IMG/VR virus record: IMGVR_UViG_3300012663_000707
Span: 70,897-119,043 of that record
Source of the DNA: a virus
Lineage: Duplodnaviria; Heunggongvirae; Uroviricota; Caudoviricetes
Length of the DNA: 48,147 nt
Strand: one strand, 5' to 3'
Part shown: positions 21,729 to 43,342 of the stretch, in pieces
Layout of the letters: every line of letters starts with the position of its first letter
Numbering within the stretch: the stretch's first letter is position 1
The notes under the pieces: model-generated
Told to the model about the DNA's origin: nothing
The model's input: only the letters and a program-made list of their open reading frames with translations
Databases searched by the model: none
Made by a program: the position numbers and the translations under genes

Positions 21729-22229
21729 TTATTTCGCAGCCCAGGCTTCTTTAACCTCGTCGATTTTTTTAATGAAAGCTTCTTTCATTTGATTACATGC
21801 TGCTTCGTACATTTCAACTGTTAATTCACCTTCACGTACTTTCTCGTGCGCTTTTTCTAATGTATCAGCTCCTAATGCAGCACATAATGCAGCATTTTCT
21901 TTCATGTAAGATTCAATTGTGTGCTCTTCGTAATCATCACCTTCATACTCACATGCTTCTTTACAAGCAGACTCATAACATTTTTTTAACAACTCAGATA
22001 CAGGACCTTCTTCCTCTTCATCATCGTCTTCCTCTTCAGACTCTTCTTCTTCATCATCGGATTCTTCTTCAGACTCGTCAGATTCTTCTTCCTCTTCTTC
22101 AGGTGATTCAATCTCTTCCTCTTCGGTTTCTTGTTCCTTATTTCCTAAGTCTTCTACTTCGGTTTCTTCTACTTGAGGTGCAGATGCTTTAGTGAAATAC
22201 TCTTCAAATGATAAAATTTTGTTTGCCAT
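21729..22229 (-). CDS. Highly acidic protein with variant targeting motif (MANKILSFEEYF); candidate head core/internal protein
   Basis: Long poly-Glu/Asp tract. Own GATATATA promoter (22248-22255) and terminator. Confidence 0.7.
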   Translation of the reverse strand: MANKILSFEEYFTKASAPQVEETEVEDLGNKEQETEEEEIESPEEEEEESDESEEESDDEEEESEEEDDDEEEEGPVSELLKKCYESACKEACEYEGDDYEEHTIESYMKENAALCAALGADTLEKAHEKVREGELTVEMYEAACNQMKEAFIKKIDEVKEAWAAK

Positions 22230-22247
22230 TATATGTTTTCTTTTTTT

Positions 22248-22255
22248 TATATATC
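22248..22255 (-). promoter_or_regulatory. Late-type promoter GATATATA (acidic protein)
   Basis: Recurrent intergenic octamer. Confidence 0.6.
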
Positions 22256-22257
22256 AA

Positions 22258-23982
22258 TTATTCTTCAGAATCAATAATATCCTTAATGTTACGGTCTAAA
22301 TCCCTAACTGTACGTTGGTCTTTATTTTTAATTTGACCCATGATTCTTCTAACTTCAGAATCGGCAACCTTCATAAGCATATCAGTCTCTTTCATTCTAA
22401 CTTCCAGCTTAATCTTCTTCACATATTGTTGTAAAGCTTCACTGTCACCTGCTAGATCATCGATAGCATCTACTAACGTTTCTTCTTGTTTAGATAAGAT
22501 TGCTATTTTTTTGTTGTGTACATCTTCGGATCTATCATCATTACCACTGTATGACGATGTTCCAAATGATGAGTTTGTAGTATACTCACCATCTTTAGCT
22601 GCATCTAACTCTTCTTTATATCTTTCAACTGGATCACCTTCAAGTTCTAATGTTCCAAGTTCAACTCTAACTTTAAAAAGTTCATCAGCTAATTTACCAA
22701 TCTTTCTTCTAATGAATGGATTTTTAAATAAACCTTTAATAAAGTCAAGGAAACCTTCATCGACTGCAGGTCTTAAGATCTCAAGTATTTCATTCTTAGG
22801 AACTCTACCGCCCATTACATTATATACATGTTCTATTGTCGCATTTAATTCAGCATCTTCAGTAGATTCGGTAACAAATTGTTCAAATAATTTTACATGC
22901 TTAAGAGCTTTAACATTTTCAGAAGCCTCTTCTTTCTCGATTTCTTTCATCTTTTCCATAGCCCAATCAACTCCTTCATCACCACCCCAGATTAACCAAG
23001 CAACGTAACCTTTATCTTTCCAAGGTTCATCTTTGAATTCAGCTGCAATTGTACTGTTCTTTCTATGTCTATTAAATTGTGCCATTCTAGAAACTACATC
23101 TCTAGAAAGTTGTTCACCTTTAGCAAGTTGGTTTGCTCTTGCCCAACCAACTGGTGTACCAGCATCAACTTCATCTCTGCCATATTTTTCTTTCCAATCA
23201 AGTGCTTGTTGAGCATTCTTAGATGCTGCTGATGGATAGTCATTATAAACTGCTTCGGTTTTACTAACCTCAATCAATAGACTTTCTTTTTTTAATTCGT
23301 CAGCTTTCTTTTTCATTTCCTTTTTAGCTTTTTCTGATTCCTTAGCAGTTTTAATCTTCTGTTTCAAAGCAAGTTGCTGTCTTGTAAGTGATACTTTAGT
23401 AGCATCTGTTTTTGCAATCTCGGCTTGTGTCTTAAATAAACTAGCTGACAATTTATCAGATGGTTCTGCTTTACCTTCTTTTTGCTTTTTCTGTAGATCT
23501 TTAATTTTATCTACTGCGTCTTCACCTTTAGAATTAATCTTACTAAACTTCTTAGTTAGATCTTTAAATTTCTGTATGATGGTTTTAGGTTTCTTTTTAC
23601 CTTTCTCTAGGAGCAAAGATTCAAGCGTTTGACCTTCTGGCATTCTAACCATTGTATGTCTAACTGCAAAGTCTTCTTTTGGTTTTTTAATGAAACCGAA
23701 TTCTTTATAGAACTTCTCAAGTCTAGAAACTGAACTAGCACCAAAGTCTTTGCTTGGCGTTAGATAGATCTTTCTACCTTGTTGGTCAGCATAGTCACAG
23801 ATTTCCTGCATTACCATACTACCGATACCAGAACCTCGTTGATCCTTAGGTACTTCAATTCTAGATAGATCAAGCCATTTGCCATTATCATATAGATCCA
23901 ACACGATACTGTACTTGGTCTCCAAGTCTCTTAGCACCGCAGCTTCATTTACGAAATTTTCAAATAACTTAACTTTTTTCAT
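22258..23982 (-). CDS. Multidomain protein: targeting motif + GNAT acetyltransferase + Lys-rich coiled coil + conserved phage 'AWLIWGGDEG' domain + second internal motif + helical domain
   Basis: Likely start MKKVKLFENFVNE at 23982, 1 nt after the upstream stop. GNAT motif A (VPKDQRGSGIGS) and LEKFYKEFGF. Confidence 0.75.
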   Translation of the reverse strand: MKKVKLFENFVNEAAVLRDLETKYSIVLDLYDNGKWLDLSRIEVPKDQRGSGIGSMVMQEICDYADQQGRKIYLTPSKDFGASSVSRLEKFYKEFGFIKKPKEDFAVRHTMVRMPEGQTLESLLLEKGKKKPKTIIQKFKDLTKKFSKINSKGEDAVDKIKDLQKKQKEGKAEPSDKLSASLFKTQAEIAKTDATKVSLTRQQLALKQKIKTAKESEKAKKEMKKKADELKKESLLIEVSKTEAVYNDYPSAASKNAQQALDWKEKYGRDEVDAGTPVGWARANQLAKGEQLSRDVVSRMAQFNRHRKNSTIAAEFKDEPWKDKGYVAWLIWGGDEGVDWAMEKMKEIEKEEASENVKALKHVKLFEQFVTESTEDAELNATIEHVYNVMGGRVPKNEILEILRPAVDEGFLDFIKGLFKNPFIRRKIGKLADELFKVRVELGTLELEGDPVERYKEELDAAKDGEYTTNSSFGTSSYSGNDDRSEDVHNKKIAILSKQEETLVDAIDDLAGDSEALQQYVKKIKLEVRMKETDMLMKVADSEVRRIMGQIKNKDQRTVRDLDRNIKDIIDSEE

Positions 23983-23983
23983 T

Positions 23984-24508
23984 TTAACGTATTTCATCAA
24001 TTGCTGGTCTATGCCAGATTTTACTATCTTCGTATGAAAGATATTCAATAGTTGCGATTTCAGCAGCTTTTTTTAAGCTATCATCTACCGTTTTAAATAA
24101 ACTTTTCATGAAAGGTTTATCATCAATCTTTAACGGACCTTCTGAAAAGTCTACCCAATCCCTAACAAAATTAATTTGTTTACCTAATTGACGTTCTTTA
24201 GTTTTAATTAAACCAAACAGTTTTCTTTTGTATTTAGGAAATGGCTCAAAATATACAGAGTACTCATATGCAGGTTTGTTTACTTGACCTCCTGACATAT
24301 CAGAAGTCATTCCCATATTTAGACCCCAAAATTTAACTACAAAACGACCGAGTTCAAAATCTTTATACCACATGTCATCAAAGCCACCTTCTGACCACTC
24401 TTCACTATGGCGAACCAATCCGCGTTTCTTAAATTCCTTTTCGTATTCTTTAAAGTTATTCATGTAACCTTCACTTACGAATTGTTCAAATAGTTTTATA
24501 TGTTTCAT
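23984..24508 (-). CDS. Hypothetical protein with MKHIKLFEQFVSE N-terminal motif
   Basis: Operonic ORF carrying the shared motif. Confidence 0.7.
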   Translation of the reverse strand: MKHIKLFEQFVSEGYMNNFKEYEKEFKKRGLVRHSEEWSEGGFDDMWYKDFELGRFVVKFWGLNMGMTSDMSGGQVNKPAYEYSVYFEPFPKYKRKLFGLIKTKERQLGKQINFVRDWVDFSEGPLKIDDKPFMKSLFKTVDDSLKKAAEIATIEYLSYEDSKIWHRPAIDEIR

Positions 24509-25170
24509 AATGGTATATATTTTAATGGATTCGTACTACTGGATAGTTTACCTTTTTTTAGAATAAAGTATTCTTGTTCGACATAAGCAGTCCAGTCTCC
24601 TGGTAACCTATGTCCTTGCTTTTTTATGTATTCGAAATATAATCTACCTCTTTTTGTCTGAGCAATAGGTTTACCTTCTTCTTCATCTTCCATCTTAGGT
24701 GCGATGCGAATTTCTTGAAGTTTTATCCATTCAATCTCACTGACTTCTTTTACTATAACATCTGTAATATCGGCTACTGTAGTAAGAACTCTAAATTGCT
24801 CACCAAAGTTTGTTAGTTTATTATCATCTCTATCCTCAAGATCAAATGAAACTACTAATGTCAAATTATAATCTTGTGGCTTAGCAGCACCTGGTTTTGT
24901 ACCAAAATTAATATAAGTATGCTTTTCATACCAACACGCCATTTTAACAATGTATGATGCATTCTCGCTTTGGAATTTATATTCAATCGAAGGCAACTCA
25001 TGGTAGTTTGAATCCAGCTTCGATCTATCAGTTAAACTTAACATGCCCATCCATGAGTCAACTTTTATGTTACCAACTCGTTTCCAAGAGTATGGTCTAG
25101 ATCCTTCTCCAATCTCATTAACCGGATAAGTTTCATTTATAAAGTCTTCAAATAGGTGGATATGCTTCAC
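24505..25170 (-). CDS. Hypothetical protein with (M)KHIHLFEDFINE motif (GTG start)
   Basis: Operonic ORF carrying the shared motif. Confidence 0.7.
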   Translation of the reverse strand: MKHIHLFEDFINETYPVNEIGEGSRPYSWKRVGNIKVDSWMGMLSLTDRSKLDSNYHELPSIEYKFQSENASYIVKMACWYEKHTYINFGTKPGAAKPQDYNLTLVVSFDLEDRDDNKLTNFGEQFRVLTTVADITDVIVKEVSEIEWIKLQEIRIAPKMEDEEEGKPIAQTKRGRLYFEYIKKQGHRLPGDWTAYVEQEYFILKKGKLSSSTNPLKYIPL

Positions 25171-25171
25171 T

Positions 25172-25729
25172 TTAATTAATCTTTATTTCAGTCTTTTCTC
25201 CATCTGCATGTGAATAGACAACATGTGACGGTTCGATGTCATATTCCAAATTACTAAACATCTCAACGTATTTAGCACCCATACCCTTCTTTAAATAAGC
25301 TATGGTGCAATGTGGATGATAATCTGGATATGAAGTTGTATGTGGCAATTCTGTTAAAGCTTTGTTACAGTTATGCAAACATTGTTCAGCGCCATCTGGA
25401 TATTTAACATCTAATTTCAATACATCATATTCGTTTTCAAATAGAGAAACGTTATGCAGTACTAATTTGTCAAATGTAGAATTACCAATTACGTTTTTAA
25501 TTCGATCTAAGGTTACATCATTATGTAAACCATAAAGTAAGGTTACATGTGATTCATCTTCCAAGCCAAAAGTTCTATCGTTTTCTTCAACATATAAATC
25601 TTCTTGATCAATTTTTGCATGGATGTTTTCTAATTGGTCGAAATTAAAATATAACATGACACAACCATATTCATATGTGTCGCCAGTTTTCTCCATAATA
25701 AAGTCTTCAAATAATTTAATTGTTCTCAT
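25172..25729 (-). CDS. 2H phosphoesterase, T4 57B/Acb1-like, with MRTIKLFEDFIME motif
   Basis: Two HxT motifs (SHVTLLYG, PHCTIAY) plus PDYHPH. Start set at ATG 25729. Confidence 0.8.
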   Translation of the reverse strand: MRTIKLFEDFIMEKTGDTYEYGCVMLYFNFDQLENIHAKIDQEDLYVEENDRTFGLEDESHVTLLYGLHNDVTLDRIKNVIGNSTFDKLVLHNVSLFENEYDVLKLDVKYPDGAEQCLHNCNKALTELPHTTSYPDYHPHCTIAYLKKGMGAKYVEMFSNLEYDIEPSHVVYSHADGEKTEIKIN

Positions 25730-25731
25730 AA

Positions 25732-26421
25732 TCAAAAGTTAGGTATACCACCAATTTCTTTGGCTCTCTTTCTCCACAAAGTCAAAACTTGTTCTCTTTC
25801 ATCACTTGAAAGATAGTCTTGTGTGTCTAAGTATTTATTTACCGTAAATTCCATAGGTTCTTTACGTTTCTTTGCTTCGTATCTTAATCCTTGTAGATTT
25901 GCATCTACTTCTTTGGGCAACATTAAGTAAGTTACTTTCGGTAAGAAACCTTGGTCGATCATAAGTCTCATATACTGATCATCTTCGATCGGTTTACCAG
26001 CTCTATAATTACCAACACCTTCACCATCTTGAGTTATATGTTCCATCTCATGTCTCATCACATCAGCTAAATGCATATAGATCTCTTGGAAATATCCAGG
26101 CAACCATTCAGGATTTACAGCGAAATCAATGTTAATGAATGGAGTCATATCTTCATCATCGTCATCAATATCTCTACCATCAGCTCCGGTACTATTTAGA
26201 ACCTCAAAGCCTTTTACCTTTTTATTCATATGTAAGGTTGCAGTTAGATCAAACTCTAAACCAGAATCTTCTATCTGTTCAAAATATTCTGCTGACTTTG
26301 CACCTGATTTCCATTCCTGGATCCAAGTTTTAAATGCAGCTTTCACCAATCTGCCGGCGATACCATCATATGATGATCTACCTTCAGATATAAAATCTTG
26401 GAAATTAACTACTTTTTTCAT
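25732..26421 (-). CDS. Zincin-like metallopeptidase with MKKVVNFQDFISE motif
   Basis: RHEMEHITQ (HExxH) and downstream EVDA third-ligand candidate. Confidence 0.65.
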   Translation of the reverse strand: MKKVVNFQDFISEGRSSYDGIAGRLVKAAFKTWIQEWKSGAKSAEYFEQIEDSGLEFDLTATLHMNKKVKGFEVLNSTGADGRDIDDDDEDMTPFINIDFAVNPEWLPGYFQEIYMHLADVMRHEMEHITQDGEGVGNYRAGKPIEDDQYMRLMIDQGFLPKVTYLMLPKEVDANLQGLRYEAKKRKEPMEFTVNKYLDTQDYLSSDEREQVLTLWRKRAKEIGGIPNF

Positions 26422-26425
26422 ATTT

Positions 26426-26433
26426 TATATATC
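26426..26433 (-). promoter_or_regulatory. Late-type promoter GATATATA at the head of the motif-protein operon
   Basis: 4 nt upstream of ATG, just after a terminator. Confidence 0.65.
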
Positions 26434-26442
26434 ATAAAAATA

Positions 26443-26466
26443 AAGGGGAGCCATTTGACTCCCCTT
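26443..26466 (-). terminator. Intrinsic terminator upstream of the late promoter at 26426
   Basis: AAGGGGAG/CTCCCCTT stem followed by TATTTTT on the minus strand. Confidence 0.75.
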
Positions 26467-26502
26467 CATAAACTAAAAACAATATGTAACTATTAAATTT
26501 GA

Positions 26503-26757
26503 TTAACAACCATTTTCAGGTTGTTGTGGCTCAACTGCCGTAGGCTGTACTTGCGTGTTATCTACGAAAATAGACTTTAAAGTTTCTAAGTAGCTATCAG
26601 CATCTGCGATAGTACGAACTAATTTGTCCATCTCCTCGATAACTTGTGGGTGTTCGCCAATACCCACTGAATTATTTGTATAAATTTCAAGGGTTGCCAA
26701 AGCTTCTAATCTTTGGGCTTCATACTTTGCACGTAGTGCTTTAATTTTCAGACTCAT
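26503..26757 (-). CDS. Small conserved T4-like phage hypothetical protein (..VGIGEH.. motif)
   Basis: Helix-NNSVGIGEHPQ-helix pattern recalled from marine T4-like phage hypotheticals. Confidence 0.65.
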   Translation of the reverse strand: MSLKIKALRAKYEAQRLEALATLEIYTNNSVGIGEHPQVIEEMDKLVRTIADADSYLETLKSIFVDNTQVQPTAVEPQQPENGC

Positions 26758-26947
26758 TTTGTGTTTTATTTAAAATACGTAATTCATTGATGATGTCACC
26801 CATACCGCTTATGATAATCGCAGGGATTGCAAAAAACCAAAAGTAACCATTGTTAAAATTTGATAGTGCAAGAATCCATAGGATAATCGACTGGATTGAC
26901 ATCTGTTTTTCAGAGATGTAGCTAAACGCTTTAGAAATTATATTCAT
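26741..26947 (-). CDS. Small membrane protein
   Basis: Two hydrophobic segments. Confidence 0.55.
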   Translation of the reverse strand: MNIISKAFSYISEKQMSIQSIILWILALSNFNNGYFWFFAIPAIIISGMGDIINELRILNKTQNESEN

Positions 26948-26970
26948 GTAAAGTTTAAATTAATTATATC

Positions 26971-27891
26971 TTATACAAGTTCAACTGCAAATTGTTTCAT
27001 GTAACGATACCATGCTTGTTCTTTAGCTTTTGCTTCTAATTCAATGTCTAAGTCTAATCCATAATCATTGATCTTGTCATAAATATAATCTGCATGTGCT
27101 CGGTTCATTACTGAATTATCTTCATAAACTTGCTTTGCAGATGAATAATGACAAAGTTGCTTGATACCTTCTGGCCATGTAGTTGCTGCAAGTTTAAGAG
27201 CTTCTTCCTGTGTTAAAGAACCAGGGTGACACCAATGATGATGATAGTCAAATGTAACCGGAGTACCAATCATACCATGTAAGATCTTAAGATCTTCTAC
27301 AGTGTACTGAGATTGCTTGTCATCATTTTCGATAACCAATCTAGCTCTGGCTCCTTCAGTTAAACGACGAAAGTTATCAACAAATCGCTGCAATACAACT
27401 TCCTTGCCACCTTGTGTTGTGTTAACGTGGATGTTTATTGCTGCATATTGATTTCTAGGTAAACCCATCAAATCCATAACCTCAGCATGCTGGTTCAATT
27501 CTTTGATAGACTTATCAACTACTGCATCATTGGTACTTGCAATAACACAGAAGTGTCCTGGATGGAATGTGATGCGTTGTCCAGATGCCTTAGCTATTTT
27601 ACCACAACCAGACAATACATTGCTAATTCGTTCGTAATCTGGTAGATCTTTGAACTCATATTCGCTCATCCATGGAAAGATGTCACTTGACATTCTATAT
27701 AATTTTACACCATGTTGCTGATTCCAAAGCAAGATACGACTTAGATCACGGACATTCTGTAATGCCAACGATGAAGCATATTCGATACCTTTAGCCTGGA
27801 ATGTGCGCTTAACCATACCTCGGTTGGTAGTTATTTTCTGTTTGCCCAATTCCATATTGATACAACAGTATCCGTAGTTAGTTTTTGTCAT
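26971..27891 (-). CDS. uvsE: UV-damage endonuclease UvsE/UVDE
   Basis: GYCCIN, YRMSSDIFPW, TFHPG, IENDD, FDYHHH, HADYI, ELEAKAKE. Confidence 0.92.
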   Translation of the reverse strand: MTKTNYGYCCINMELGKQKITTNRGMVKRTFQAKGIEYASSLALQNVRDLSRILLWNQQHGVKLYRMSSDIFPWMSEYEFKDLPDYERISNVLSGCGKIAKASGQRITFHPGHFCVIASTNDAVVDKSIKELNQHAEVMDLMGLPRNQYAAINIHVNTTQGGKEVVLQRFVDNFRRLTEGARARLVIENDDKQSQYTVEDLKILHGMIGTPVTFDYHHHWCHPGSLTQEEALKLAATTWPEGIKQLCHYSSAKQVYEDNSVMNRAHADYIYDKINDYGLDLDIELEAKAKEQAWYRYMKQFAVELV

Positions 27892-28096
27892 TGAATTGTT
27901 TTATAACTTTAATAAAAAATGATATGGCGAATATTGGCCAGATAATAAGTACATAAATACGTTCTACCACAGTAAACCTGAGTTTTTCTGCGTCCGAGTC
28001 ACCGGTCAATCTTGTAATTTTATTGACCGTAAGATCATAAAGTAGATTGACCAAGACTCCAAACGTAATATACCAAACGATAATTTGAAAATTCAT
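27878..28096 (-). CDS. Small membrane protein
   Basis: Two TM-like segments. Confidence 0.55.
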   Translation of the reverse strand: MNFQIIVWYITFGVLVNLLYDLTVNKITRLTGDSDAEKLRFTVVERIYVLIIWPIFAISFFIKVIKQFNDKN

Positions 28097-28130
28097 ATTG
28101 TTGTACGAGTTCTATTGTGAATGTTTACAG

Positions 28131-28796
28131 TTAACTCATGGATGGATCCTCATGGTGATCATGTTCATGTGCCAACAGGCTTTTAATTGGTCGATCTTCG
28201 ATCAACTTCAAGACTTGTTGCAATGAGTATGGTTGAAAGTCTAAGCTTCCATCCATACCGACATCCATCATTTTACCTGGACCAACTTTAAATTGGTGTG
28301 GAGTATGCACGTGGCCATGGATATGTTTTACACCTTGACCCATATCTTGCCAAGAAGCTAACGGGTAGTGACTCATTACAAATCGGTGTTTTATCGCTTT
28401 ACCATTTTTAACATCTGGTTGAATTACAATAGTCACCATTCGTTGTTCGTTGACTGAAGCAAACAATTCACGTATTCCATCTCTATCGTTTAAGATATGG
28501 TGATCATGGTTACCCAAGAATAAGTGTATGTTTTTGCAACGCAATTGGTTTCTGAATTCTGCAATTTGTTCAAATCCACCGAATGACCAATCGCCCAAGT
28601 GAAATAAGATGTCGTTCTCGCCGACCAACATGTTGATGTTATCAACGATATTGATGTTCATTTCGTTAAGAGTTTTAAAGTCTCTTGTACCTCTAGCTCC
28701 GTCCCATTTTGAAACGCCGCGGCAAATATTGGTATGGTTATAGTGCGTATCGGAAGTAAAGAAGATTCTCTGTCCTGGGTTAACTACTACTTTCAT
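28131..28796 (-). CDS. Calcineurin-like metallophosphoesterase
   Basis: SDTH, LGD, GNHD, SHYP, HGHVH motifs. Confidence 0.92.
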   Translation of the reverse strand: MKVVVNPGQRIFFTSDTHYNHTNICRGVSKWDGARGTRDFKTLNEMNINIVDNINMLVGENDILFHLGDWSFGGFEQIAEFRNQLRCKNIHLFLGNHDHHILNDRDGIRELFASVNEQRMVTIVIQPDVKNGKAIKHRFVMSHYPLASWQDMGQGVKHIHGHVHTPHQFKVGPGKMMDVGMDGSLDFQPYSLQQVLKLIEDRPIKSLLAHEHDHHEDPSMS

Positions 28797-28812
28797 TTGT
28801 TCTTGTTTTAAT

Positions 28813-28886
28813 GTTACAGTGTAAATATAATAAAAAAGATTGACATAAAAAAATTTATTTGCAATTATTTGCCAAAAGTTATTAAC
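28813..28886 (-). promoter_or_regulatory. Repeated early-type (host sigma) promoter, copy 1
   Basis: GTTAATAAC...TGTCAATCTTTTTTATTATATTTACACTGTAAC. TAnnTTT(G/A) -7-like element. Confidence 0.75.
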
Positions 28887-28913
28887 AAAAAAAGAGTCCC
28901 GAAGGACTCTTTT
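28887..28913 (-). terminator. Intrinsic terminator closing the ncRNA locus
   Basis: AAAAGAGTCC-TTCG-GGACTCTTTT followed by a U-run. cUUCGg tetraloop. Confidence 0.9.
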
Positions 28914-28920
28914 AATATTA

Positions 28921-29181: not shown

Positions 29182-29184
29182 TTA

Positions 29185-32705: not shown

Positions 32706-33095
32706 TTATCTAGATACCTTAGCTCTAGTACCTTGTATCTGTGTAAATGGTAGATTAGAACCTTTAACTTCGATAGTACCGTATGCAAATGAGATGTGGT
32801 GTGGTTGCGCTCCAACTTTACTTTTTACAGCAGCAACATAAGCTGCAGCAGCTTCGTCTTCAGTATCGTAGATCGATAATATTTCTATTTCGAAAGAAGC
32901 CAATTGTGTATTCATACTGCTTTTAAGATACATTGTAGTACCTTCAAAATCTATAGCGTTATCTGAGACAACAGCATATTTAGTTTCACCTTTTGCTGGA
33001 GTTCCAGCAACATCGACTTGATACTTACTAAAGTAATAGTAACCTCCGTCAACCGACTCGTTAATGAGTTCTCCGAATAATTTTACGTGTTTCAT
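32706..33095 (-). CDS. Hypothetical protein with MKHVKLFGELINE motif
   Basis: Shared N-terminal motif. Confidence 0.65.
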   Translation of the reverse strand: MKHVKLFGELINESVDGGYYYFSKYQVDVAGTPAKGETKYAVVSDNAIDFEGTTMYLKSSMNTQLASFEIEILSIYDTEDEAAAAYVAAVKSKVGAQPHHISFAYGTIEVKGSNLPFTQIQGTRAKVSR

Positions 33096-34992: not shown

Positions 34993-35066
34993 GTTATAGT
35001 GTAAATATAATAAAAAAGTCTGAGACTAAAAAATCTCAGACCATTTATTTTGTAAAAGTTATTAAC
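34993..35066 (-). promoter_or_regulatory. Early-type promoter, copy 3, with embedded terminator-like hairpin
   Basis: GTTAATAAC...GTCTGAGA-N8-TCTCAGAC-TTTTTTATTATATTTACACTATAAC. Confidence 0.78.
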
Positions 35067-36057: not shown

Positions 36058-36058
36058 A

Positions 36059-36274: not shown

Positions 36275-36288
36275 TTTGTTTGTTTTTT

Positions 36289-36362
36289 GTTACAGTGTAA
36301 ATATAATAAAAAAGATTGACATAAAAAAATTATTTGACAACTATTTGAGCAAAGTTATTAAC
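36289..36362 (-). promoter_or_regulatory. Early-type promoter, copy 4
   Basis: GTTAATAAC...TGTCAATCTTTTTTATTATATTTACACTGTAAC. Confidence 0.78.
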
Positions 36363-36365
36363 AAT

Positions 36366-36599
36366 TTACTCAACAAATTCAAACTTCTTAATCTTAAACT
36401 TTTTCATCCAAATTTTAATGAAAGATTCTCCGACACCAACTTCAACCATTTCATATTTGTGATCAATGATTGGCTTCTTCTTTTTCACATCAATTACCGT
36501 ATCTACGTTTTGTGTGGTGACCATCATGTAATGTACACTAGATCTTACAGATTTTTTGTAAACTACCACTACAGGATTACGTTTAAACTCTTGTTCCAT
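36366..36599 (-). CDS. Hypothetical protein (likely start MEQEFK)
   Basis: TAATG overlap with the upstream gene. Confidence 0.6.
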   Translation of the reverse strand: MEQEFKRNPVVVVYKKSVRSSVHYMMVTTQNVDTVIDVKKKKPIIDHKYEMVEVGVGESFIKIWMKKFKIKKFEFVE

Positions 36600-36943
36600 T
36601 ATTTCCAAAACAATTGCACACATAATAAGGCTACTGATAACCCCAAAGAAATTAAGGTCTTTGTGTTCATGCCTTCATTCATGATAAAATAGGTAAGCAT
36701 CGAAAAGGCTAAGATACCTGTTGCAAATCCGATGAATCTTCCTGGCCAAAGTTGACCGTCATAGTATTCCACTAAGTATTTAGTGGCAGTGATAAACGTA
36801 TAAGAGATTATCGTACCTCCGACTATAGAAACTACCCATGGATTCTTCTTAATTATAGGCCAAACAAATTGACCGTTAGTTTGAAGCCATACCAATGACT
36901 GACCAAACAGGAATAATAAGATCCCTATGAGTAATTGTCTCAA
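36599..36943 (-). CDS. Four-TM membrane protein
   Basis: Four hydrophobic segments in 114 aa. Confidence 0.7.
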   Translation of the reverse strand: MRQLLIGILLFLFGQSLVWLQTNGQFVWPIIKKNPWVVSIVGGTIISYTFITATKYLVEYYDGQLWPGRFIGFATGILAFSMLTYFIMNEGMNTKTLISLGLSVALLCVQLFWK

Positions 36944-37566
36944 AATAGTGATTCGGTTTTAGTAAGCATGTGACTGATAAATGATGCACGGTGGTGCTCG
37001 GTAGCACCATGTTCTAGAATTGCATCTCGGTGTTGTTTAGTACCGTAACCTTTGTTCGAACCCCAACCGTAAAACTCATTACCTTCGCTTAATTGTTTCA
37101 TTAAACGATCTCTTTCAGTTTTAGCAAGGATAGATGCAGCTGCAATCGAAACGTACATGTTGTCACCTCCGACTACAGTTTCAAACGGAATTCCATTCCA
37201 ACCATGGAACTGATCTCCATCAACTAGAATGAAATCAAATTCCTTTTCTTTACTAACAGCATCCAAGCATTGCTTCATACCATGCAAGGTCGCTTTCAAG
37301 ATGTTTGTGGACTCGATCTCTGATACATCGATATGTTTCACAGCAAACGCAATTGCGTTGTCCAGAACTAGTTTACGAGCCTCTGCTCGTTCTGGTTCAC
37401 TTAATAGTTTTGAGTCTTTAATTAACTCGTGTTGGAAACCATAAGGCATAATACATGCAGCAACGGTTACTGGGCCAGCTAAGGCACCTCGACCTGCTTC
37501 ATCTAGTCCAATCTCAACTATGTTAGGATTTTCTGTATGACTGTGTTTCAATAAGATGTGTTTCAT
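36940..37566 (-). CDS. rnhB: Ribonuclease HII
   Basis: GLDEAGRG.LAGPV, DSK, VDG, GD...SIAAASILAK..RD, KGYGT..H. Confidence 0.93.
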   Translation of the reverse strand: MKHILLKHSHTENPNIVEIGLDEAGRGALAGPVTVAACIMPYGFQHELIKDSKLLSEPERAEARKLVLDNAIAFAVKHIDVSEIESTNILKATLHGMKQCLDAVSKEKEFDFILVDGDQFHGWNGIPFETVVGGDNMYVSIAAASILAKTERDRLMKQLSEGNEFYGWGSNKGYGTKQHRDAILEHGATEHHRASFISHMLTKTESLF

Positions 37567-37609
37567 ATAACTTGTTTGTTGATGTTATATGAAACACATG
37601 CATTATTGT

Positions 37610-38335
37610 TTATTTTTGAGAATCGTTGTCAACTCTCCATTTATCATAACGGTTAACAACATCTTGTAGAATCTTAGCTCTAACAATATCCTTCTCTTCA
37701 AATCTGTGATGTCCTACACCTCTAACACCCTCCATTAGTTTAACAAAACCAGGAAGACCTACATTGTTCTTAGGTATATCATATTGGCTAATATCTCCGG
37801 TTACTAGAACCTTTGAGTTCTTACCCATTCTAGTTACGAAAAGCATTAGTTGTTTAAATGTTGCATTTTGTGCTTCATCTAAGATCATTAATGCATCGTC
37901 GAATGTGTCACCTCTCATGAATGCAAGAGGTTTAAATTCAATAATATTTTGTTTGATTAGGGCTTCAGTCAATTCAGTTCCAATTATCTTTTTAAAATTA
38001 GAAATGTATGACTGCATGTAAGGATCAATTTTATCGGCAATATCTCCAGGAAGGAATCCTAGTTTTTCACCAGATTCTTGTATTGGCTTGCAAAGTATTA
38101 ATGTGCTTATTTGTTTGGTTGCAAGTAAATGTAATGCTGTGTAGCATGCAGTAAATGTTTTGGATGTTCCGGCGGGTCCAGAACAAAATGTAATTTCGTT
38201 TTTTTCTATAGTATTGCAATATTCTCGTTGACTAGGTTTTAATTGTACTCCGACTAGATCTAATTCTTTAACATTCTGTTTTCTTGTTGTCGTTGCCGGT
38301 TTGCTTTGTTGTGTTCCTTCAGTCTTTTTGCGCAT
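37610..38335 (-). CDS. phoH: PhoH-like ATPase
   Basis: GPAGTSKT, GFLPGDI, PLAFMRG.TF, LDEAQN, TRMG, TGD..Q.D. Confidence 0.93.
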   Translation of the reverse strand: MRKKTEGTQQSKPATTTRKQNVKELDLVGVQLKPSQREYCNTIEKNEITFCSGPAGTSKTFTACYTALHLLATKQISTLILCKPIQESGEKLGFLPGDIADKIDPYMQSYISNFKKIIGTELTEALIKQNIIEFKPLAFMRGDTFDDALMILDEAQNATFKQLMLFVTRMGKNSKVLVTGDISQYDIPKNNVGLPGFVKLMEGVRGVGHHRFEEKDIVRAKILQDVVNRYDKWRVDNDSQK

Positions 38336-38353
38336 ATATTGTAAAATTATTTT

Positions 38354-38614
38354 TTAATCCCCAGCCATTATGACTAGTTCCTTTAACTTTAAAAGCTTGG
38401 TGCATTTTTCGTATTCCTCAAGTTCTTCAAAATACTTAATCATCAAGTCTATAAACTTGCTTCGTTGGCCGATACCATGTGGGATTTCAATTAATCGTTC
38501 GTTGTCTTTGAACACAATGAAGCGATTCACCGTCTTGGTAAAGTTCCTTGTGATTTGGTAGTAAGATGCTCTCATCAAACTATCTCGATCCGTATTTGAA
38601 AGGAAACTGCTCAT
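38354..38614 (-). CDS. Small protein with C-terminal UVR-like motif (YFEELEEYEKCTKL)
   Basis: Motif shared with two neighbouring genes. Confidence 0.65.
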   Translation of the reverse strand: MSSFLSNTDRDSLMRASYYQITRNFTKTVNRFIVFKDNERLIEIPHGIGQRSKFIDLMIKYFEELEEYEKCTKLLKLKELVIMAGD

Positions 38615-38732
38615 TTTTCAACTGCTCTTTTTATATTCGATGCGAACGTGGACGCACCTTTACATATATATTTAATACCATCTATCCTGTGCGACAGAAT
38701 CGTATCAAAAAATATACCACAATATCTACATA

Positions 38733-38927
38733 TTAATCTTTATTGATTAAATCTTTTTTCTTTTGTAGATGTTTTGCTTTTGAAAGATCAGCTCTTTTTT
38801 TAGATGATGGTTTCTCGAACTCTTGGCGATTGCGCAGTTCGTTTAGTTGTTTAGTCTTAATGACTTTTGATTTATATTTCTTTAAGGCTTTTTCTATATT
38901 GCCTGATTCTACTTCGATGATCAACAT
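38733..38927 (-). CDS. rpsU: Phage-encoded ribosomal protein bS21 (Bacteroidota type)
   Basis: [21 protein letters not shown]...LRNRQEFEKPS..KR. Confidence 0.9.
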   Translation of the reverse strand: MLIIEVESGNIEKALKKYKSKVIKTKQLNELRNRQEFEKPSSKKRADLSKAKHLQKKKDLINKD

Positions 38928-39202
38928 GACTCTACCTCCTTTTTAATTTTTAGCATGCTTGCGCATTTCTCGTAATCCTCTCTTTTTTCATAGTAACTAA
39001 TGATTTCGCCTATGATTTCTAGTTTACGTTCTTTGGTCATATCAGATAATACGACATAAGATGGATGTGCATTAATTGCATCGTACAGAATATTAAAGAA
39101 TGCGTCTTTACCTCTTAAGGCACTTGTTAGTGTCATAATTATCGTAAAGGCATCTCGACCTTCCATTTTAGGTCTTCTATTCGAAAAGAAATTACTTTCC
39201 AT
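38921..39202 (-). CDS. Small protein with UVR-like motif ([14 protein letters not shown]); 3' end contains the rpsU SD
   Basis: Overlaps the rpsU start. Confidence 0.7.
38934..38943 (-). promoter_or_regulatory. Strong Shine-Dalgarno (AAAGGAGGT) upstream of rpsU
   Basis: Minus strand AAAAAGGAGGTAGAGTC-ATG. No comparable SD seen before the other starts inspected. Confidence 0.85.
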
Positions 39203-40010
39203 TGCTGAGTTGTTTGATTTTATCTATATATTCTAGTTGCTCATCATTTAACTCTGGGTATGATGCGTTAACTCTACATAAGATAGAACCTCTTTTTTCT
39301 GTTCCGTAAATTGGAAAACCTTTCTCTTGTAGTCTAAGAGTTTTACCAGGGTGAGTTCCCTTTGGTATCTTTAATAGTAATTGACCCTCTGGTGTCATGA
39401 TTGGCACTTTGGTTCCAGCCATAATTGACCACCACGGAGTTGTAGTTTCAATCCATATGTCATCACCTTGCAGAATAAATCTTGAATCTGGGATCACGTT
39501 AATAGTAACCAGTAGGTCTCCTTTAGGTAACGTAGTATTATATGGGTGTTGGTGTCCTCTACCTTGAACTCTAAACTTTTGCCCAGTCTTAAGACCTGGT
39601 TTAAAGTTCATGTTTATTGTACCATCCGGTAAATTAAAAGATTTACTTGTACCATTAAAAGCTTCACCAAATGAGATATGAACTTCAACCGGTAAGTCCT
39701 GGCCTTTTTGTGGTGCATTCGATCGATGTGAGTTACCGAACATCTGATCAAACAAACTAGAAAAATCTACGTTATTATTGTTGCCATAACCAAAACTAGA
39801 AAAGAAATCCTGATTTGTTCGTTTGGCATCGTAACTTTTACGTTTCTGTTCGTCACCTAAAACTGAATAAGCTTCTGCAACTTGTTTAAACTTTTCGTCA
39901 CCTCCTGGATTTACATCTGGGTGATATTGTTTACTTAAGTTACGGTAAGCCTTTTTGATTTCGTCAGCAGTTGCTTGTTCAGCAACACCTAACGTTTGGT
40001 AGTGACTCAT
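39192..40010 (-). CDS. dnaJ: DnaJ-class co-chaperone lacking the Zn finger (CbpA-like)
   Basis: J domain ([26 protein letters not shown]) plus DnaJ C-terminal domain. Confidence 0.9.
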
Positions 40011-40231
40011 TATTTTTCAGAAATTTGCTGATCTCTGAAGTCTGTGCTTTTAACATTAGCACCTGTTGTATTAATCTTCTCTCGAAGGTCTGCTCGAAGA
40101 TTTCTTTCGTGTAACTTTTCGACAGTTAACTTGCGTTTCTCAGTAGCTTCTTCTCGGTTATTCTGTTTATCTAAAGCATCTGCTATTCTTGTTAGTTGTT
40201 TTAACAACTCTCTTGCAATCTTATCTTCCAT
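40010..40231 (-). CDS. Hypothetical coiled-coil protein, 73 aa
   Basis: Operonic ORF. Confidence 0.6.
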
Positions 40232-40502
40232 ATCGGTTTTTAATTAGATCAGAATTTCCATTCTGAAAATCTTGGTACGGCAACGAATTATCTTTTTGAT
40301 CTTTGCGAGGCCCGTTTACCATTTTAGTATCTTTGTAAGGATTTGTTTCACCAATTTTATTTCGCAACCAATCATCTAAGTCTTGGACACTAGCGTGGAA
40401 ATGTCTAATTTTATGAAGGTTAGCATCTTCAACGTTTCCGTCAACTGCTACGATCGTATTAGATTCATTTATATACTGGTTGAATGGTTTAACAAATTTC
40501 AT
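40221..40502 (-). CDS. Hypothetical protein with MKFVKPFNQYINE motif
   Basis: Shared motif. GATATATA 4 nt upstream of ATG. Confidence 0.65.
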   Translation of the reverse strand: MKFVKPFNQYINESNTIVAVDGNVEDANLHKIRHFHASVQDLDDWLRNKIGETNPYKDTKMVNGPRKDQKDNSLPYQDFQNGNSDLIKNRYGR

Positions 40503-40506
40503 ACAT

Positions 40507-40514
40507 TATATATC
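40507..40514 (-). promoter_or_regulatory. Late-type promoter GATATATA (motif protein, dnaJ, rpsU block)
   Basis: 4 nt upstream of ATG. Confidence 0.6.
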
Positions 40515-40841
40515 CTACTCAGATATACTTTTTATGTTGACTATCTCTTCGATGTTGGTTAAATGATTTCGAAGTAATGCACATTTTTCATATTCTTCAA
40601 GATCAATGTAGTAATTAATCATGGTATGCAATGTAACTTTTAATGCTTCAAGTTCATCCAGGTCCATCATACGTAGATGCCAGTCGGACAATCCTTTTTC
40701 CTTGATTGATTTATAGTTATTCTCAATTGCAATAACCATCATCTTCTCTCTAAATTCGTTAAGATTAGATTCAAATTCCTTGGCGCTTTCGTTCATGAAA
40801 TCTTCAAAATCAAAATCTTCGTCGTTGAAATCGTTAAACAT
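40515..40841 (-). CDS. Acidic small protein with UVR-like motif (YYIDLEEYEKCALLRN)
   Basis: Third copy of the motif. Confidence 0.65.
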   Translation of the reverse strand: MFNDFNDEDFDFEDFMNESAKEFESNLNEFREKMMVIAIENNYKSIKEKGLSDWHLRMMDLDELEALKVTLHTMINYYIDLEEYEKCALLRNHLTNIEEIVNIKSISE

Positions 40842-40844
40842 ATC

Positions 40845-41129
40845 TTACTTATTTTTAAATTGTTGATTATAACTAGGGTAATTTCTGATCCAATGGTTAC
40901 GTTCCATGTAAGAATCTTTCCATGTTGGTTTAACACCGTACGTTTCGATGTATTTTTCAACAAACAAACTAGCATCGCAATCTTCTTCAAGATAAGCCAT
41001 GGTTCCCTTCTTATTTATATAAGAGAATTCGCTGATTTGAGCTTGGATACCAAGTTGTTCCAAAAGTTGCACCTTAACTCCGATCCAACCATGTCCAGGA
41101 TCTGTGTAATATTTGAATGTATTTTTCAT
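40845..41129 (-). CDS. Conserved phage hypothetical early protein (DPGHGW...YLEEDCDA)
   Basis: First gene after early promoter copy 5. Motif recalled from phage/ICE hypotheticals. Confidence 0.7.
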   Translation of the reverse strand: MKNTFKYYTDPGHGWIGVKVQLLEQLGIQAQISEFSYINKKGTMAYLEEDCDASLFVEKYIETYGVKPTWKDSYMERNHWIRNYPSYNQQFKNK

Positions 41130-41140
41130 CTTGTTTGTTT

Positions 41141-41214
41141 GTTACAGTGTAAATATAATAAAAAAACTTGAAACAAAAAAATATTTTACAACTTATTTTG
41201 TAAAAGTTATTAAC
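41141..41214 (-). promoter_or_regulatory. Early-type promoter, copy 5
   Basis: GTTAATAAC...TTTTTTTATTATATTTACACTGTAAC. Confidence 0.78.
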
Positions 41215-41217
41215 AAT

Positions 41218-41979
41218 TTAGAATGGAGCATCTGACCATTCATCTAAGATCTCGTGTCCACCTAATCGAAGCATAATGTTTGCACATGCTTTAATATCCT
41301 TTTCACAATATGTAACGATTTCTGGTAAACGACCTTCCCAATAGAATCGGTTTACTTGATAACCTGCCATGTCATCTTTAGGTGTTGGAATATCTAAAAG
41401 TTCTGCTAGATGGCCAAGTCGTGCTGAAGATCCAGCTCCATAACTACCAAATGACCAGATCTCTTTAGTGTCTATAAGACAAGTTTCCCATGGTTTAAGT
41501 TTCTGTACTTGGAACTCTCTGATCACAGATACTTTATTGATCACTGCTCGTTTAACAATATAAGGAATATCAAATCCTTTTACATAGTGACCAACCCATT
41601 TCATAGAAGGGTATTTGTTCATAATACCAGCGGAGGTTCGCATAAATTCATTCAGCAAAACTGCTTCATCATCACCAGAAAAAGACTTGGCGTTAAAACC
41701 AACTGGATTATTGTCATCATCAAACTTAATCTGCCCGATTGAGATACAGACAATCTTACCCCATTCTGGATAAAGACCGCCCATTCTAGGATACATTTCG
41801 TTTTCGTCTAGAACTTCACCAAGTTCAGATCTATTTTGTTCTTTAAGTTGCACAAATCGTTCTTGCCAAAATGGTGCTAATTTTGGGTTCTTATCAAGAA
41901 GTTCTTGCAGGGTTTCAGTCTGCGTTGTAGTCTCGATGTCGATGAAAATCATCCTCTTTAATTCGTCTACTGTATACAT
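41218..41979 (-). CDS. Stand-alone PolB-type 3'-5' exonuclease (DEDD)
   Basis: FIDIET (ExoI), GH..KGFDIPY (ExoII), YCEKDI (ExoIII), KPWE. Confidence 0.85.
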   Translation of the reverse strand: MYTVDELKRMIFIDIETTTQTETLQELLDKNPKLAPFWQERFVQLKEQNRSELGEVLDENEMYPRMGGLYPEWGKIVCISIGQIKFDDDNNPVGFNAKSFSGDDEAVLLNEFMRTSAGIMNKYPSMKWVGHYVKGFDIPYIVKRAVINKVSVIREFQVQKLKPWETCLIDTKEIWSFGSYGAGSSARLGHLAELLDIPTPKDDMAGYQVNRFYWEGRLPEIVTYCEKDIKACANIMLRLGGHEILDEWSDAPF

Positions 41980-41994
41980 TGCTTTTAAACTAAA

Positions 41995-42020
41995 AAACGC
42001 CTAGAATATTCTAGACGTTT
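41995..42020 (-). terminator. Probable terminator hairpin upstream of the exonuclease
   Basis: AAACG-(T)-CTAGAA-TA-TTCTAG-(G)-CGTTT followed by a T-run on the minus strand. Confidence 0.6.
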
Positions 42021-42045
42021 GTTATATTGTTATGTTTTAGTTTGT

Positions 42046-42156
42046 TTATTCTGACTTAGTCAAGAACTTCCAAACCAATCCAACTAATGTGTTAGCTCTG
42101 TACTTTCTACCTTTATGGTTTAGCAAGAAGCTTTTCTTTTCGTTTACCTGTTTCAT
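42046..42156 (-). CDS. Microprotein, 36 aa (MKQVNEKKSFLLNHKGRKYRANTLVGLVWKFLTKSE)
   Basis: Manual translation. Fills the gap between the 81-aa gene and the terminator. A-rich leader. Confidence 0.5.
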   Translation of the reverse strand: MKQVNEKKSFLLNHKGRKYRANTLVGLVWKFLTKSE

Positions 42157-42165
42157 ATTTTAATT

Positions 42166-42411
42166 TTAATTGTGATCCCAATCACGATGAGATCTTAAAT
42201 GCGAATAACTGTCATATGGCAGTGAAACCATAACATATCCTCCCGTGACAGAATATGGCAATTGATTCTCGTTCAACCAATATGATGGTGCATCTAAGAT
42301 TCTTTCGTTTAAGAAATCAAATAACTCATCTAGTTGCATGTGGTGCACCCAAATGTTAATATACATACATTTCATATCTGGCATTCCCATATCAATCCAT
42401 TTTAACTTCAA
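42166..42411 (-). CDS. Hypothetical protein, 81 aa
   Basis: Operonic ORF. Confidence 0.6.
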   Translation of the reverse strand: MKLKWIDMGMPDMKCMYINIWVHHMQLDELFDFLNERILDAPSYWLNENQLPYSVTGGYVMVSLPYDSYSHLRSHRDWDHN

Positions 42412-43342
42412 ACCTTTCAGGTTCTAAATCTACCGTTTTCTTATCAAGGTAGTCACTAAATTCTTTTAGAGATTTATCTGTTTGTGCATCAACATCTCTA
42501 CCATAGAAGTCGTTGAACAAGACTCTATAAATATGCACTGTTGAATCAAAAGGTACTCCTGGTTGCGAGTTACTTTCAATTACATAAAGTTTACCATCTT
42601 TGTCTTCCATTACGTCAAAACAAATGTAAGGTAGGTCTTCGAAGATCTTACCGAATTTAGCAACAAGTGCTTTAAAACGATCATCAATCTTAGCAGCATC
42701 ATGCTTAATGTACTTAAACATCATTTGCTCTTTACCTTCACCATCTCCGTTTTTAGCTTTATCATTCATCGGTTGACGTTCCATCCAATAGAAACATTCG
42801 CCTTTAAATGTAATTAGTCTATGTTCTGATTTTTTATCAACGTATTCTGAATAGATGTCAAACTTAGAATGGTCTGCTTTATCAAAGCTTTCTTGATCTT
42901 TAAAGATTTGAATGCCCAATCCAGAGTGTCCTTCCGCTGGTTTTGCAATCATTGGAAAACCGATCTCTTTTACAGCTTCATCTTTGTTATCAATAGTCTT
43001 AGGAATATTCTCATCACCATCTACCAATTTATGAAATTCAGCTTTAGAACCTGATTTCTTAATATGATCTGGGTGGTTATAAATATTTTCGGCCTTGATT
43101 AAACCATCATCAAGAAGTGTTTGTACAACCTTAGAATTATAAGTCAATACTGGCAACTCAGGATTAATCTTAATCTTCTTATAGTTTTCCAAAGTGATCT
43201 GTATAAAATAATTGTCTGCAGCGAAACCTTTATAACTCCACCAACGATGACCACTTCCTGGGTCAATAGCAAGATAAATCTTTTGTAGATCTTTGCCGTC
43301 TTTATCCTGAGAGAAATCCTCAAATATTCTTACCTTCTTCAT
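42392..43342 (-). CDS. ATP-grasp ligase (RimK-like) with MKKVRIFEDF N-terminal motif
   Basis: IPKT, GFPMIAKPAEGHSGLGI, SEYVDKKSEHR, FDVMEDKDGKLYVIESNSQPG. Confidence 0.82.
   Translation of the reverse strand: MKKVRIFEDFSQDKDGKDLQKIYLAIDPGSGHRWWSYKGFAADNYFIQITLENYKKIKINPELPVLTYNSKVVQTLLDDGLIKAENIYNHPDHIKKSGSKAEFHKLVDGDENIPKTIDNKDEAVKEIGFPMIAKPAEGHSGLGIQIFKDQESFDKADHSKFDIYSEYVDKKSEHRLITFKGECFYWMERQPMNDKAKNGDGEGKEQMMFKYIKHDAAKIDDRFKALVAKFGKIFEDLPYICFDVMEDKDGKLYVIESNSQPGVPFDSTVHIYRVLFNDFYGRDVDAQTDKSLKEFSDYLDKKTVDLEPERFEVKMD

Follow-up and report, generated by a model that had tools for sequence, protein, structure and literature searches.

What could make proteins with nothing else in common start with the same short peptide? 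The question is raised by a 48,147-nucleotide stretch of viral DNA (the window), which spans bases 70897-119043 of a 119-kb IMG/VR contig (G000; record IMGVR_UViG_3300012663_000707; CheckV completeness of 44%). The contig has a guanine-plus-cytosine content of ∼34% and nearly all of its genes are on the minus strand. Several of those in the window encode an N-terminal leader of 13 residues, MKxxKLFExF(I/V)xE (consensus MKHIKLFEQF[IV]NE). An earlier reading of the window, made from its letters only (the sequence-only reading), listed nine such genes and proposed that the leader resembles the capsid targeting sequence (CTS) of phage T4 and loads diverse effectors into the head for injection. We consider it likely that the leader is a T4-type capsid targeting propeptide that would be removed by an S77 prohead protease after Glu13.

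Because the closest matches of its capsid protein are those of uncultured huge phages (LR756500, 51% identity), followed by Lak Prevotella megaphages and Tenacibaculum phages PTm1 and pT24, the source is classed as an uncultured, distant T4-type jumbo phage, probably of Bacteroidota. Megablast of positions 19000-27000 of the window yielded 0 matches to GenBank phages.

The leader recurs at N-termini of unrelated proteins

All nine N-termini of the sequence-only reading are present at the minus-strand starts by which we name the genes. The leader is clear in seven of them (23982, 24508, 25170, 25729, 26421, 33095, and 40502), partial in 22229, and degenerate in 43342. A motif scan of the whole contig uncovered copies outside that list. 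Two are in the window, one at the start of gene 40841 (MFNDFNDEDFDFEDFMNE) and one internal to the 574-amino-acid protein (KHVKLFEQFVTE); in the rest of the contig, leaders begin genes that start at G000 positions 13347, 40976, 42642, 45793, 47211, and 52882; the leader of a further gene, at 5125, is weak. In total, 10 N-terminal leaders were counted in the window; the whole contig has at least 17, with ∼13% of its genes bearing one.

The core of the leader, F..[FYL][IVLM].E, occurs at 11 of 1703 N-terminal positions versus 7 of 35124 internal positions, a 33-fold enrichment (Fisher p = 5e-11). Shuffled proteins have a mean of 0.25 matches and a maximum of 2, against the 11 observed. Recurrence of the leader is beyond chance. 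The proteins are otherwise unrelated, as had been claimed; pairwise BLAST of 17 mature parts found no match at E < 0.01. Paralogy of the tagged genes was ruled out because similarity is confined to the leader. A secretion or lipoprotein signal was likewise ruled out, since the leader is acidic and has no hydrophobic core.

The leader-bearing features of the window are as follows.

21729..22229, minus strand: 166-amino-acid hyperacidic protein (isoelectric point of 4.1); weak partial leader MANKILSFEEYFTK, with only the first half and without the (I/V)xE end
22258..23982, minus strand: 574-amino-acid three-module protein; leader MKKVKLFENFVNE
22867..22902, minus strand: internal leader copy KHVKLFEQFVTE, residues 361-372 of the 574-amino-acid protein
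23984..24508, minus strand: 174-amino-acid protein of no credible family; leader MKHIKLFEQFVSE
24505..25170, minus strand: 221-amino-acid protein with a GTG start; leader (M)KHIHLFEDFINE
25172..25729, minus strand: 185-amino-acid 2H phosphoesterase (LigT/Acb1-like) with both HxT motifs (HVT and HCT); leader MRTIKLFEDFIME
25732..26421, minus strand: 229-amino-acid HExxH (RHEMEH) zincin-like protein, the first of a six-gene tagged block; leader MKKVVNFQDFISE
32706..33095, minus strand: 129-amino-acid protein of no credible family, with no promoter-like motif upstream; leader MKHVKLFGELINE
40221..40502, minus strand: 93-amino-acid protein; leader MKFVKPFNQYINE
40515..40841, minus strand: 108-amino-acid acidic protein; longer leader MFNDFNDEDFDFEDFMNE, with the core FEDFMNE at residues 12-18
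42392..43342, minus strand: 316-amino-acid ATP-grasp enzyme; degenerate leader MKKVRIFEDFSQD, with Ser for I/V and Asp for Glu

A conserved peptide that ends at Glu and aligns with the T4 CTS

Conservation was measured in non-redundant leaders that came from IMG/VR loci as well as this contig, 227 for codon counts and 216 for information per position. The search pattern itself fixed positions 7, 10, 11, and 13 and left positions 2, 4, 5, 6, and 8 unconstrained. At these unconstrained positions (K2, I/V4, K5, L6, and E8) information is 2.8-3.8 bits; it is 1.2 bits at position 14 (A/S/K/E/G) and less than 0.7 bits beyond. Position 11 is I, V, L, or M, and the window exceptions to an (L/I)-x-E end are 22229 and 43342. 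Synonymous codons are mixed, with TTT/TTC at 134/84, AAT/AAC at 80/44, GAA/GAG at 174/53, and three codons in use for each of Ile and Val. Since synonymous codons are mixed and conservation ends at Glu13, it is the peptide and not the DNA that is under selection, and the selected unit is 13 residues long and ends in Glu.

The N-terminus of T4 internal proteins IPII and IPIII is MKTYQEFIAE and that of IPI is MKTFKEF...ITE. The first 10 residues of IPIII are enough for encapsidation; residues 4 and 7 of the CTS serve targeting, residues 8 and 10 serve processing, and Asp at position 10 blocks processing while targeting is kept (PMC9026906). F7, F10, I/V11, and E13, the four positions of highest conservation in the leader, are in register with Y4, F7, I8, and E10 of the T4 CTS. 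In a seven-column position-specific scoring matrix built from the clade only, YQEFIAE of the T4 CTS scores 14.1 bits, a score reached by ∼0.1% of shuffled N-termini. The (I/V/L)xE end of the leader, the halt of conservation at that end, and the register of residues found critical by experiment in T4 all agree with the comparison to T4 made by the sequence-only reading. By the T4 rule, one may speculate that the 43342 protein, with Asp at position 13, would be targeted without being cleaved.

A T4-ordered head module with a prohead protease

Head genes on the contig follow the order of those in T4: portal, a 117-amino-acid small protein, protease-scaffold, and capsid protein. Portal and capsid protein match the Portal_T4 (gp20-type) and Gp23 profiles at 242 and 162 bits, respectively. 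A protein of 670 amino acids (G000 2704-4716) joins the scaffold to a Peptidase_S77 domain (gp21-type; 46-49 bits, cut-off of 27), and the catalytic His and Ser motifs of this domain align with those of T4 gp21 (GELDHP/GELNHP and ISSRAAG/VSSRGLG). The N-terminus of the fusion, NNLLIVE11, is invariant in four relatives and resembles LLIE9 of T4 gp21, where autocleavage has been discussed (PMC9026906). Repeats of (L/V/I)AE abound in the scaffold region.

By synteny, the small protein encoded between portal and protease corresponds to gp67 and gp68 of the T4 core. In relatives, it has a canonical leader (MKKLIKTFEQFIFE, and MKYIKLFEQFIKE in many contigs) and it forms the largest leader-bearing cluster; the copy on this contig is degenerate (MKIFKTFESYMNS). 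A T4-type CTS is supported by this leader on a head-module protein and by the presence, within a T4-ordered head module of the same contig, of an S77 protease that conserves its catalytic His and Ser.

Two further observations concern these head proteins. At residues 280-335 of the protease fusion there are tandem 14-residue repeats (SIQYSEHVAEKADQ, SIQYAEHLAEKLDQ, and GISYSEHLAE) followed by a leader-like VKDFANYLAE, a run of candidate leader-like cleavage sites. The capsid protein (G000 1159-2598) starts MANLINE|AEIRG, with a second INE at residues 24-26, and by eye resembles the T4 gp23 cut, FLTE|AEIGG.

A cleavage-type end need not imply packaging. The leader could be a processing or zymogen signal only, in which case late enzymes would be activated in the cytoplasm by a prohead-type or other protease and never enter a capsid. 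That the leader ends (I/V/L)xE and that conservation drops sharply after Glu13 points to a boundary of the cleavage type without in itself showing targeting, and the internal copy in the 574-amino-acid protein fits polyprotein processing as such. However, the known site of action of gp21-family proteases is the prohead interior (PMC9026906), the aromatic pair, which in T4 serves targeting and not processing, is among the most conserved positions of the leader, and the same leader is on the head-module small protein. We regard processing without packaging as unlikely.

Proteins that bear the leader in the window

The sequence-only reading had named an acetyltransferase, a phosphoesterase, a protease, and a ligase as cargo. 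Family searches recovered the first two as a GNAT domain (22258-23982) and a 2H protein (25172-25729), and the ligase is an ATP-grasp enzyme (42392-43342). The protease corresponds to the HExxH zincin-like protein (25732-26421), the motif of which is invariant while its fold matches are weak.

The 574-amino-acid protein has, after its leader, a GNAT acetyltransferase domain at residues 31-103, then a middle module (∼231-362), the internal leader, and a 200-residue C-terminal module. The GNAT domain scores above Pfam cut-offs (Acetyltransf_10, 26.9 versus 23.6; Acetyltransf_1, 26.5 versus 20.7), and the protein matches PHROG 10691 (a 3925-position profile) and PHROG 2859. In relatives, the middle module is a stand-alone leader-bearing gene. 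A search for homologues of the C-terminal module returned one truncated copy of the same fusion and nothing else. The internal leader is identical in P0121, a relative with 83% identity, while the residues that flank it differ; it is a putative internal cleavage site of a polyprotein.

The 2H protein is a family match (Pfam 2_5_RNA_ligase2, 32.9 bits versus a cut-off of 27), and H61, T63, H140, and T142 are invariant in 35 homologues. Its score of 22.7 bits against Pfam Acb1 is under the 27-bit cut-off and does not place it in that family. In the HExxH protein, R123, H124, E125, E127, H128, and E171 are invariant in 34 homologues. An AlphaFold2 model of this protein has a pLDDT of 92.7, with residues 1-6 disordered. 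The protein has no Pfam match and no Foldseek match to the PDB at E ≤ 0.001; VIA-align wide gave Z of at most 5.4, with numerous zincins among the weak rows. The ATP-grasp gene is above the cut-off for Pfam CPSase_L_D2 and matches PHROG 2599, which is RimK-like. Its orthologues in relatives start canonically with MKRIKLFEQFI(A/T)E (MKRIKLFEQFIAE).

Other leader-bearing proteins of the window are less easily placed. The 221-amino-acid protein reaches 16.5 bits with Pfam DUF6934, under the cut-off, and its Atlas matches are viral clusters only. The 93-amino-acid protein has a leader-bearing relative that is 74% identical over 69 residues, and an orthologue of the 108-amino-acid protein in a relative starts MEDDFNFEDFMEE. 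Relaxed Pfam searches gave no credible family for the 174-, 129-, 93-, and 108-amino-acid proteins or for the middle and C-terminal modules of the 574-amino-acid protein; rows other than DUF6934 were no better than chance. Pfam and PHROG searches with the 166-amino-acid hyperacidic protein were without a match; its acidic run resembles the tail of T4 gp67, and this is a resemblance only.

The leader in relatives

At least 120 stretches of IMG/VR contain a strict degenerate DNA pattern of the leader. In each of five relatives (234-256 kb), there are 8-17 strict copies, versus 0 for a reversed control, and all five encode the S77-scaffold fusion. One of the five is complete with terminal repeats, and in it ∼14 of 15 consecutive genes bear the leader. 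In 596 Gb of prokaryote genomes, there are five matches to the strict pattern. One of these matches is a contig in a Bacteroidetes metagenome-assembled genome (MAG), CAIWBA010000291.1 (254 kb), which has five leader-bearing genes within 8 kb. It is probably a phage of this clade that was binned with the MAG of its host and so hints at the host phylum. Members of the clade probably infect marine or freshwater Bacteroidota.

Across relatives and IMG/VR, leader-bearing proteins fall into 103-113 unrelated clusters (196 complete proteins form 103 clusters). Few have Pfam matches; those that do include Tad3, 2H/Acb1, CHAP, a Zeta_toxin-type kinase, and a cytidylyltransferase. One of the 103 representatives matches Pfam Tad3, a Type I Thoeris inhibitor, at E = 8e-19. 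Among the proteins examined, no recognized replication or tail protein bears the leader.

The 2H phosphoesterase, with more than 1000 homologues, provides a view of one cargo domain behind different leaders. Among the best 120 homologues, leaders differ by lineage (MKHIKLFEEFIxE, MIKSFTQFVNE, MIKLLDLLLE, and MKLTKIxKxILxE), every form ends (I/L/V)xE directly before KKGDxYxYGC, and the catalytic domain is constant. In Maribacter phage Molly, which is cultured, the homologue lacks a leader. Where HExxH and 2H homologues stand alone without a leader, their first residue is only a few positions from the predicted cut. Most HExxH homologues form part of multidomain proteins of 400-1580 amino acids, where the domain is preceded by ...(L/I)(N/T)E|GRYD. 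We suggest that the alternative leaders and the internal copies fit an address label that can be detached and is also a site for the protease.

Several other N-termini were observed in these searches. Large HExxH-domain proteins (413-1322 amino acids; P0128, P0136, P0138-P0142, P0146, P0148, P0149, P0153, P0156, P0157, and P0163) share another N-terminal leader, MNxLxKxLIxPLLE, which likewise has LxE at its end; in another phage group, it may represent a second type of targeting leader. In LR756502.1, a 642-kb uncultured phage, neighbouring genes at 5185-8183 start MKYIMTFESI, MKYIKLFESI, MKYIKYFEAI, and MIKKYLEFMKE. These MKYIKxFE leaders, which surround a 2H homologue, are classed as a related but distinct leader family. 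In a 246-kb relative (G005), at least eight paralogues of ∼170-300 amino acids (several of 211) start MKHIKLFEQFISEEETPKLSAKDIFIPRRLKERW. These paralogues, whose leaders are nearly identical as DNA, are dispersed over the genome, including a place beside the protease gene.

Promoter-like motifs and possible leader cassettes

The motif ATATATA[AG], identified by consensus match only, has 28 copies on the coding strand versus 5 on the opposite strand. Copies lie ahead of the portal, protease-scaffold, capsid, and tail genes as well as 9-10 tagged genes. That tagged genes have a promoter-like motif in common with portal, protease, and capsid genes is a further point for a T4-type CTS. In the form GATATATAA(A/T)A, the motif is 4 nucleotides before the ATG of 26421, 40502, and 43342 and 18 nucleotides upstream of 22229. 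Three of these copies have the following positions.

26425..26433, minus strand: late-promoter-like GATATATAA, 4 nucleotides before the ATG at 26421
40506-40513, minus strand: promoter-like GGATATATAA, 4 nucleotides before the ATG of the 93-amino-acid gene (40502)
43346-43353, minus strand: promoter-like GGATATATAA, 4 nucleotides before the ATG of the ATP-grasp gene (43342)

Gene 26421 is followed downstream, in tight succession, by genes 25729, 25170, 24508, and 23982. The claim that all listed genes except 33095 follow a late promoter or lie in an operon headed by one was borne out at the level of the promoter-like motif: the motif heads 26421, 22229, 40502, and 43342, genes 25729-23982 are packed behind 26421, and 33095 is without a motif.

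In five cases, the motif is 4 nucleotides from the ATG (26425-26433, 40506-40513, and 43346-43353 in the window; 52886-52893 and 5129-5136 in G000), and all five genes are leader-bearing. The arrangement suggests near-leaderless late mRNAs and a portable cassette of promoter, ATG, and leader. An open reading frame (ORF) at 43355-43783 ends KKVEVFED*, a leader fragment, and is followed by the promoter and the MKKVRIFEDF of the ATP-grasp gene. In relatives (L023/L067), the ORF upstream of the ATP-grasp orthologue ends KPF(A/I)EFKGI*. These fragments look like scars of recombination within leaders.

Such a cassette raises the main rival with some support, in which the leader is a by-product. A mobile unit of late promoter, ATG, and first codons would capture genes, and its codons would serve translation initiation on near-leaderless mRNAs or recombination. 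In its favor are the tagged genes behind all five ATG-abutting motifs, the fragments KKVEVFED* and KPF(A/I)EFKGI* at the ends of upstream ORFs, and the near identity, as DNA, of many leaders in G005. But free synonymous variation places selection at the level of the peptide, leaders are also on promoterless genes within an operon (24508, 25170, and 25729) and internally at residue 361, and conservation ends exactly at a Glu that fits a protease motif. Moreover, recombination through a shared leader is also known at internal-protein loci of T-even phages and can coexist with targeting. Mobility of a cassette could explain the spread of the leader and not the conservation of the peptide up to Glu; as a full account of the leader, it is slightly less probable than processing without packaging.

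A second promoter-like element was also observed in the window. Four intergenic copies of TTTTTTATTATATTTACAC(T/G)(A/G)TAAC are on the minus strand (28813-28833, 34993-35013, 36289-36309, and 41141-41161), ∼15-20 nucleotides before untagged genes. The TTTTTTATTATATTTACAC cassette is probably an early or middle promoter type of the phage. One of the genes it heads, 40845-41129, precedes the tagged gene at 40841.

A model for loading of the head, and points against it

If the leader is a T4-type capsid targeting propeptide, the following course is predicted. Late in infection, tagged proteins would be made alongside head proteins, and the aromatic pair F7 and F10 would dock them onto the scaffold or core assembling on the portal. 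The capsid shell would then close around the docked proteins. Recognizing (I/V/L)-x-E, the S77 (gp21-type) prohead protease would cut after Glu13 and leave mature proteins free inside the head. Internal leader copies in multi-module fusions would be cut likewise, separating a polyprotein into its cargo. At the next infection, the mature proteins would exit with the DNA and act ahead of any phage gene expression. This last step, ejection into the host, we consider about evenly balanced. The term ejectome, used in the sequence-only reading, applies by analogy with T4.

Several points weigh against T4-type targeting. The strict leader pattern is absent from LR756500.1, Lak-A1, Tenacibaculum PTm1, and pT24, the nearest GenBank phages by capsid protein, and a loose scan of all 303 ORFs of PTm1 found no recurring leader. 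These four phages have related heads without the leader; therefore, the head type does not require it. BLASTP of the capsid protein against T4 gp23 aligns the C-terminal half only and leaves the propeptide N-terminus unaligned, and MANLINE|AEIRG was recognized as a site by eye only. Two members in the window deviate, 22229 having no cleavage end and 43342 having Ser and Asp in place of (I/V) and Glu. Some cargo is large (574 amino acids) or has no obvious use on injection. Mobility of the cassette may account for part of the spread of the leader, because ATG-abutting promoters precede tagged genes in 5 of 5 cases and leader DNA is nearly identical in G005. Finally, core binding, cleavage, virion residence, and ejection are all carried over from T4.

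That the leader sends proteins elsewhere, to the tail or baseplate, the membrane, or an intracellular phage compartment, is very improbable: an amphipathic N-terminal peptide could in principle bind many partners and nothing specific speaks for such a destination, while the leader is acidic with no hydrophobic signal-peptide core, is absent from all tail and baseplate proteins checked, and is in register with a capsid signal of T4.

Implications for uncultured phages

A broader proposal is that a clade of ∼235-256-kb T4-like phages, probably of Bacteroidota, pre-loads dozens of enzymes per virion (from more than 100 families, including known antagonists of immune signals such as Tad3 and Acb1-like phosphodiesterases) by means of a portable 13-residue leader, with the prohead protease also cutting polyproteins at internal copies. 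We put this forward tentatively, as somewhat short of an even chance. If true, the anti-defence proteins that uncultured phages inject could be listed straight from their sequences. Should the leader function as it does in T4, it marks, by sequence alone, capsid-carried proteins that are delivered at the start of infection, a class otherwise found only via virion proteomics of cultured phages. That class would then be far larger and more enzymatic in this clade than in T4. It would include relatives of known anti-CBASS and anti-Thoeris proteins and so yield a candidate list of early counter-defence and host-takeover factors. The leader also fixes start codons, such as those of 25170 (GTG) and 23982 (ATG). 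Foreign proteins are already packaged by means of the T4 CTS, and the leader therefore suggests a second, longer candidate tag.

Comparison with known systems

Phage P1 also builds proteins into its head and delivers them with DNA, in its case the anti-defence Dar proteins (PMC9024508, PMC12810830). However, Dar proteins have no shared short N-terminal leader of this kind and P1 is of another head lineage. Polyvalent proteins (Iyer et al. 2017, PMC5512222) are alike in having effector-like domains of zincin-like metallopeptidase, acetyltransferase, and phosphoesterase types that are predicted to be delivered with DNA. Likewise, homologues of the HExxH protein are mostly in multidomain proteins and the 574-amino-acid protein of the window is a three-module fusion. 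In contrast to polyvalent proteins, those described here are mostly separate genes, each with its own leader, and the proposed processing enzyme is the prohead protease, acting where junctions resemble the leader, and not an embedded metallopeptidase.

Phages phiKZ, 201phi2-1, and SPN3US have many head-internal proteins that are cut after Glu by a gp21 homologue, and their propeptides are thought to be targeting signals (PMC5694885, PMC10052503). Most of these propeptides are longer than 100 residues, with no single short peptide common to them. The motif for cleavage also differs, being (S/A/G)-x-E with a small P3 residue, whereas that residue here is I, V, or L.

T4 provides the closest parallel. 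Its CTS is on the internal proteins named IPI, IPII, and IPIII and on Alt and is removed by gp21 (Mullaney & Black 1996, reviewed in PMC9026906 and PMC3012670). Shared with T4 are a short N-terminal leader common to otherwise unrelated proteins, an aromatic-x-x-Phe-Ile-x-Glu in register (MKTYQEFIAE versus MKHIKLFEQFINE), a gp21-family protease, and the order of head genes. As in T4, leader-bearing genes are clustered in variable regions and small residues are favored after Glu. Both the CTS of T4 and how diverse internal proteins are among T-even phages have long been known, and it has been proposed that the CTS lets T4-like phages load varied proteins (PMC9026906, PMC3012670). Our search of the literature found no paper that describes this leader in uncultured phages.

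The two systems differ in several respects. The leader here is three residues longer than that of T4 and has an extra conserved K-L, and the protease is fused to the scaffold. Many of the cargo proteins are enzymes and not small basic proteins, and fusions contain internal leader copies. T4 has four such proteins, compared with at least 17 on this contig, ∼14 of 15 consecutive genes in the complete relative, and more than 100 cargo families in the clade, with the present system known from sequence alone. The longer leader, the scale of its use, the enzymatic and anti-defence-like cargo, and the internal copies in polyproteins appear to be undescribed in the literature searched.

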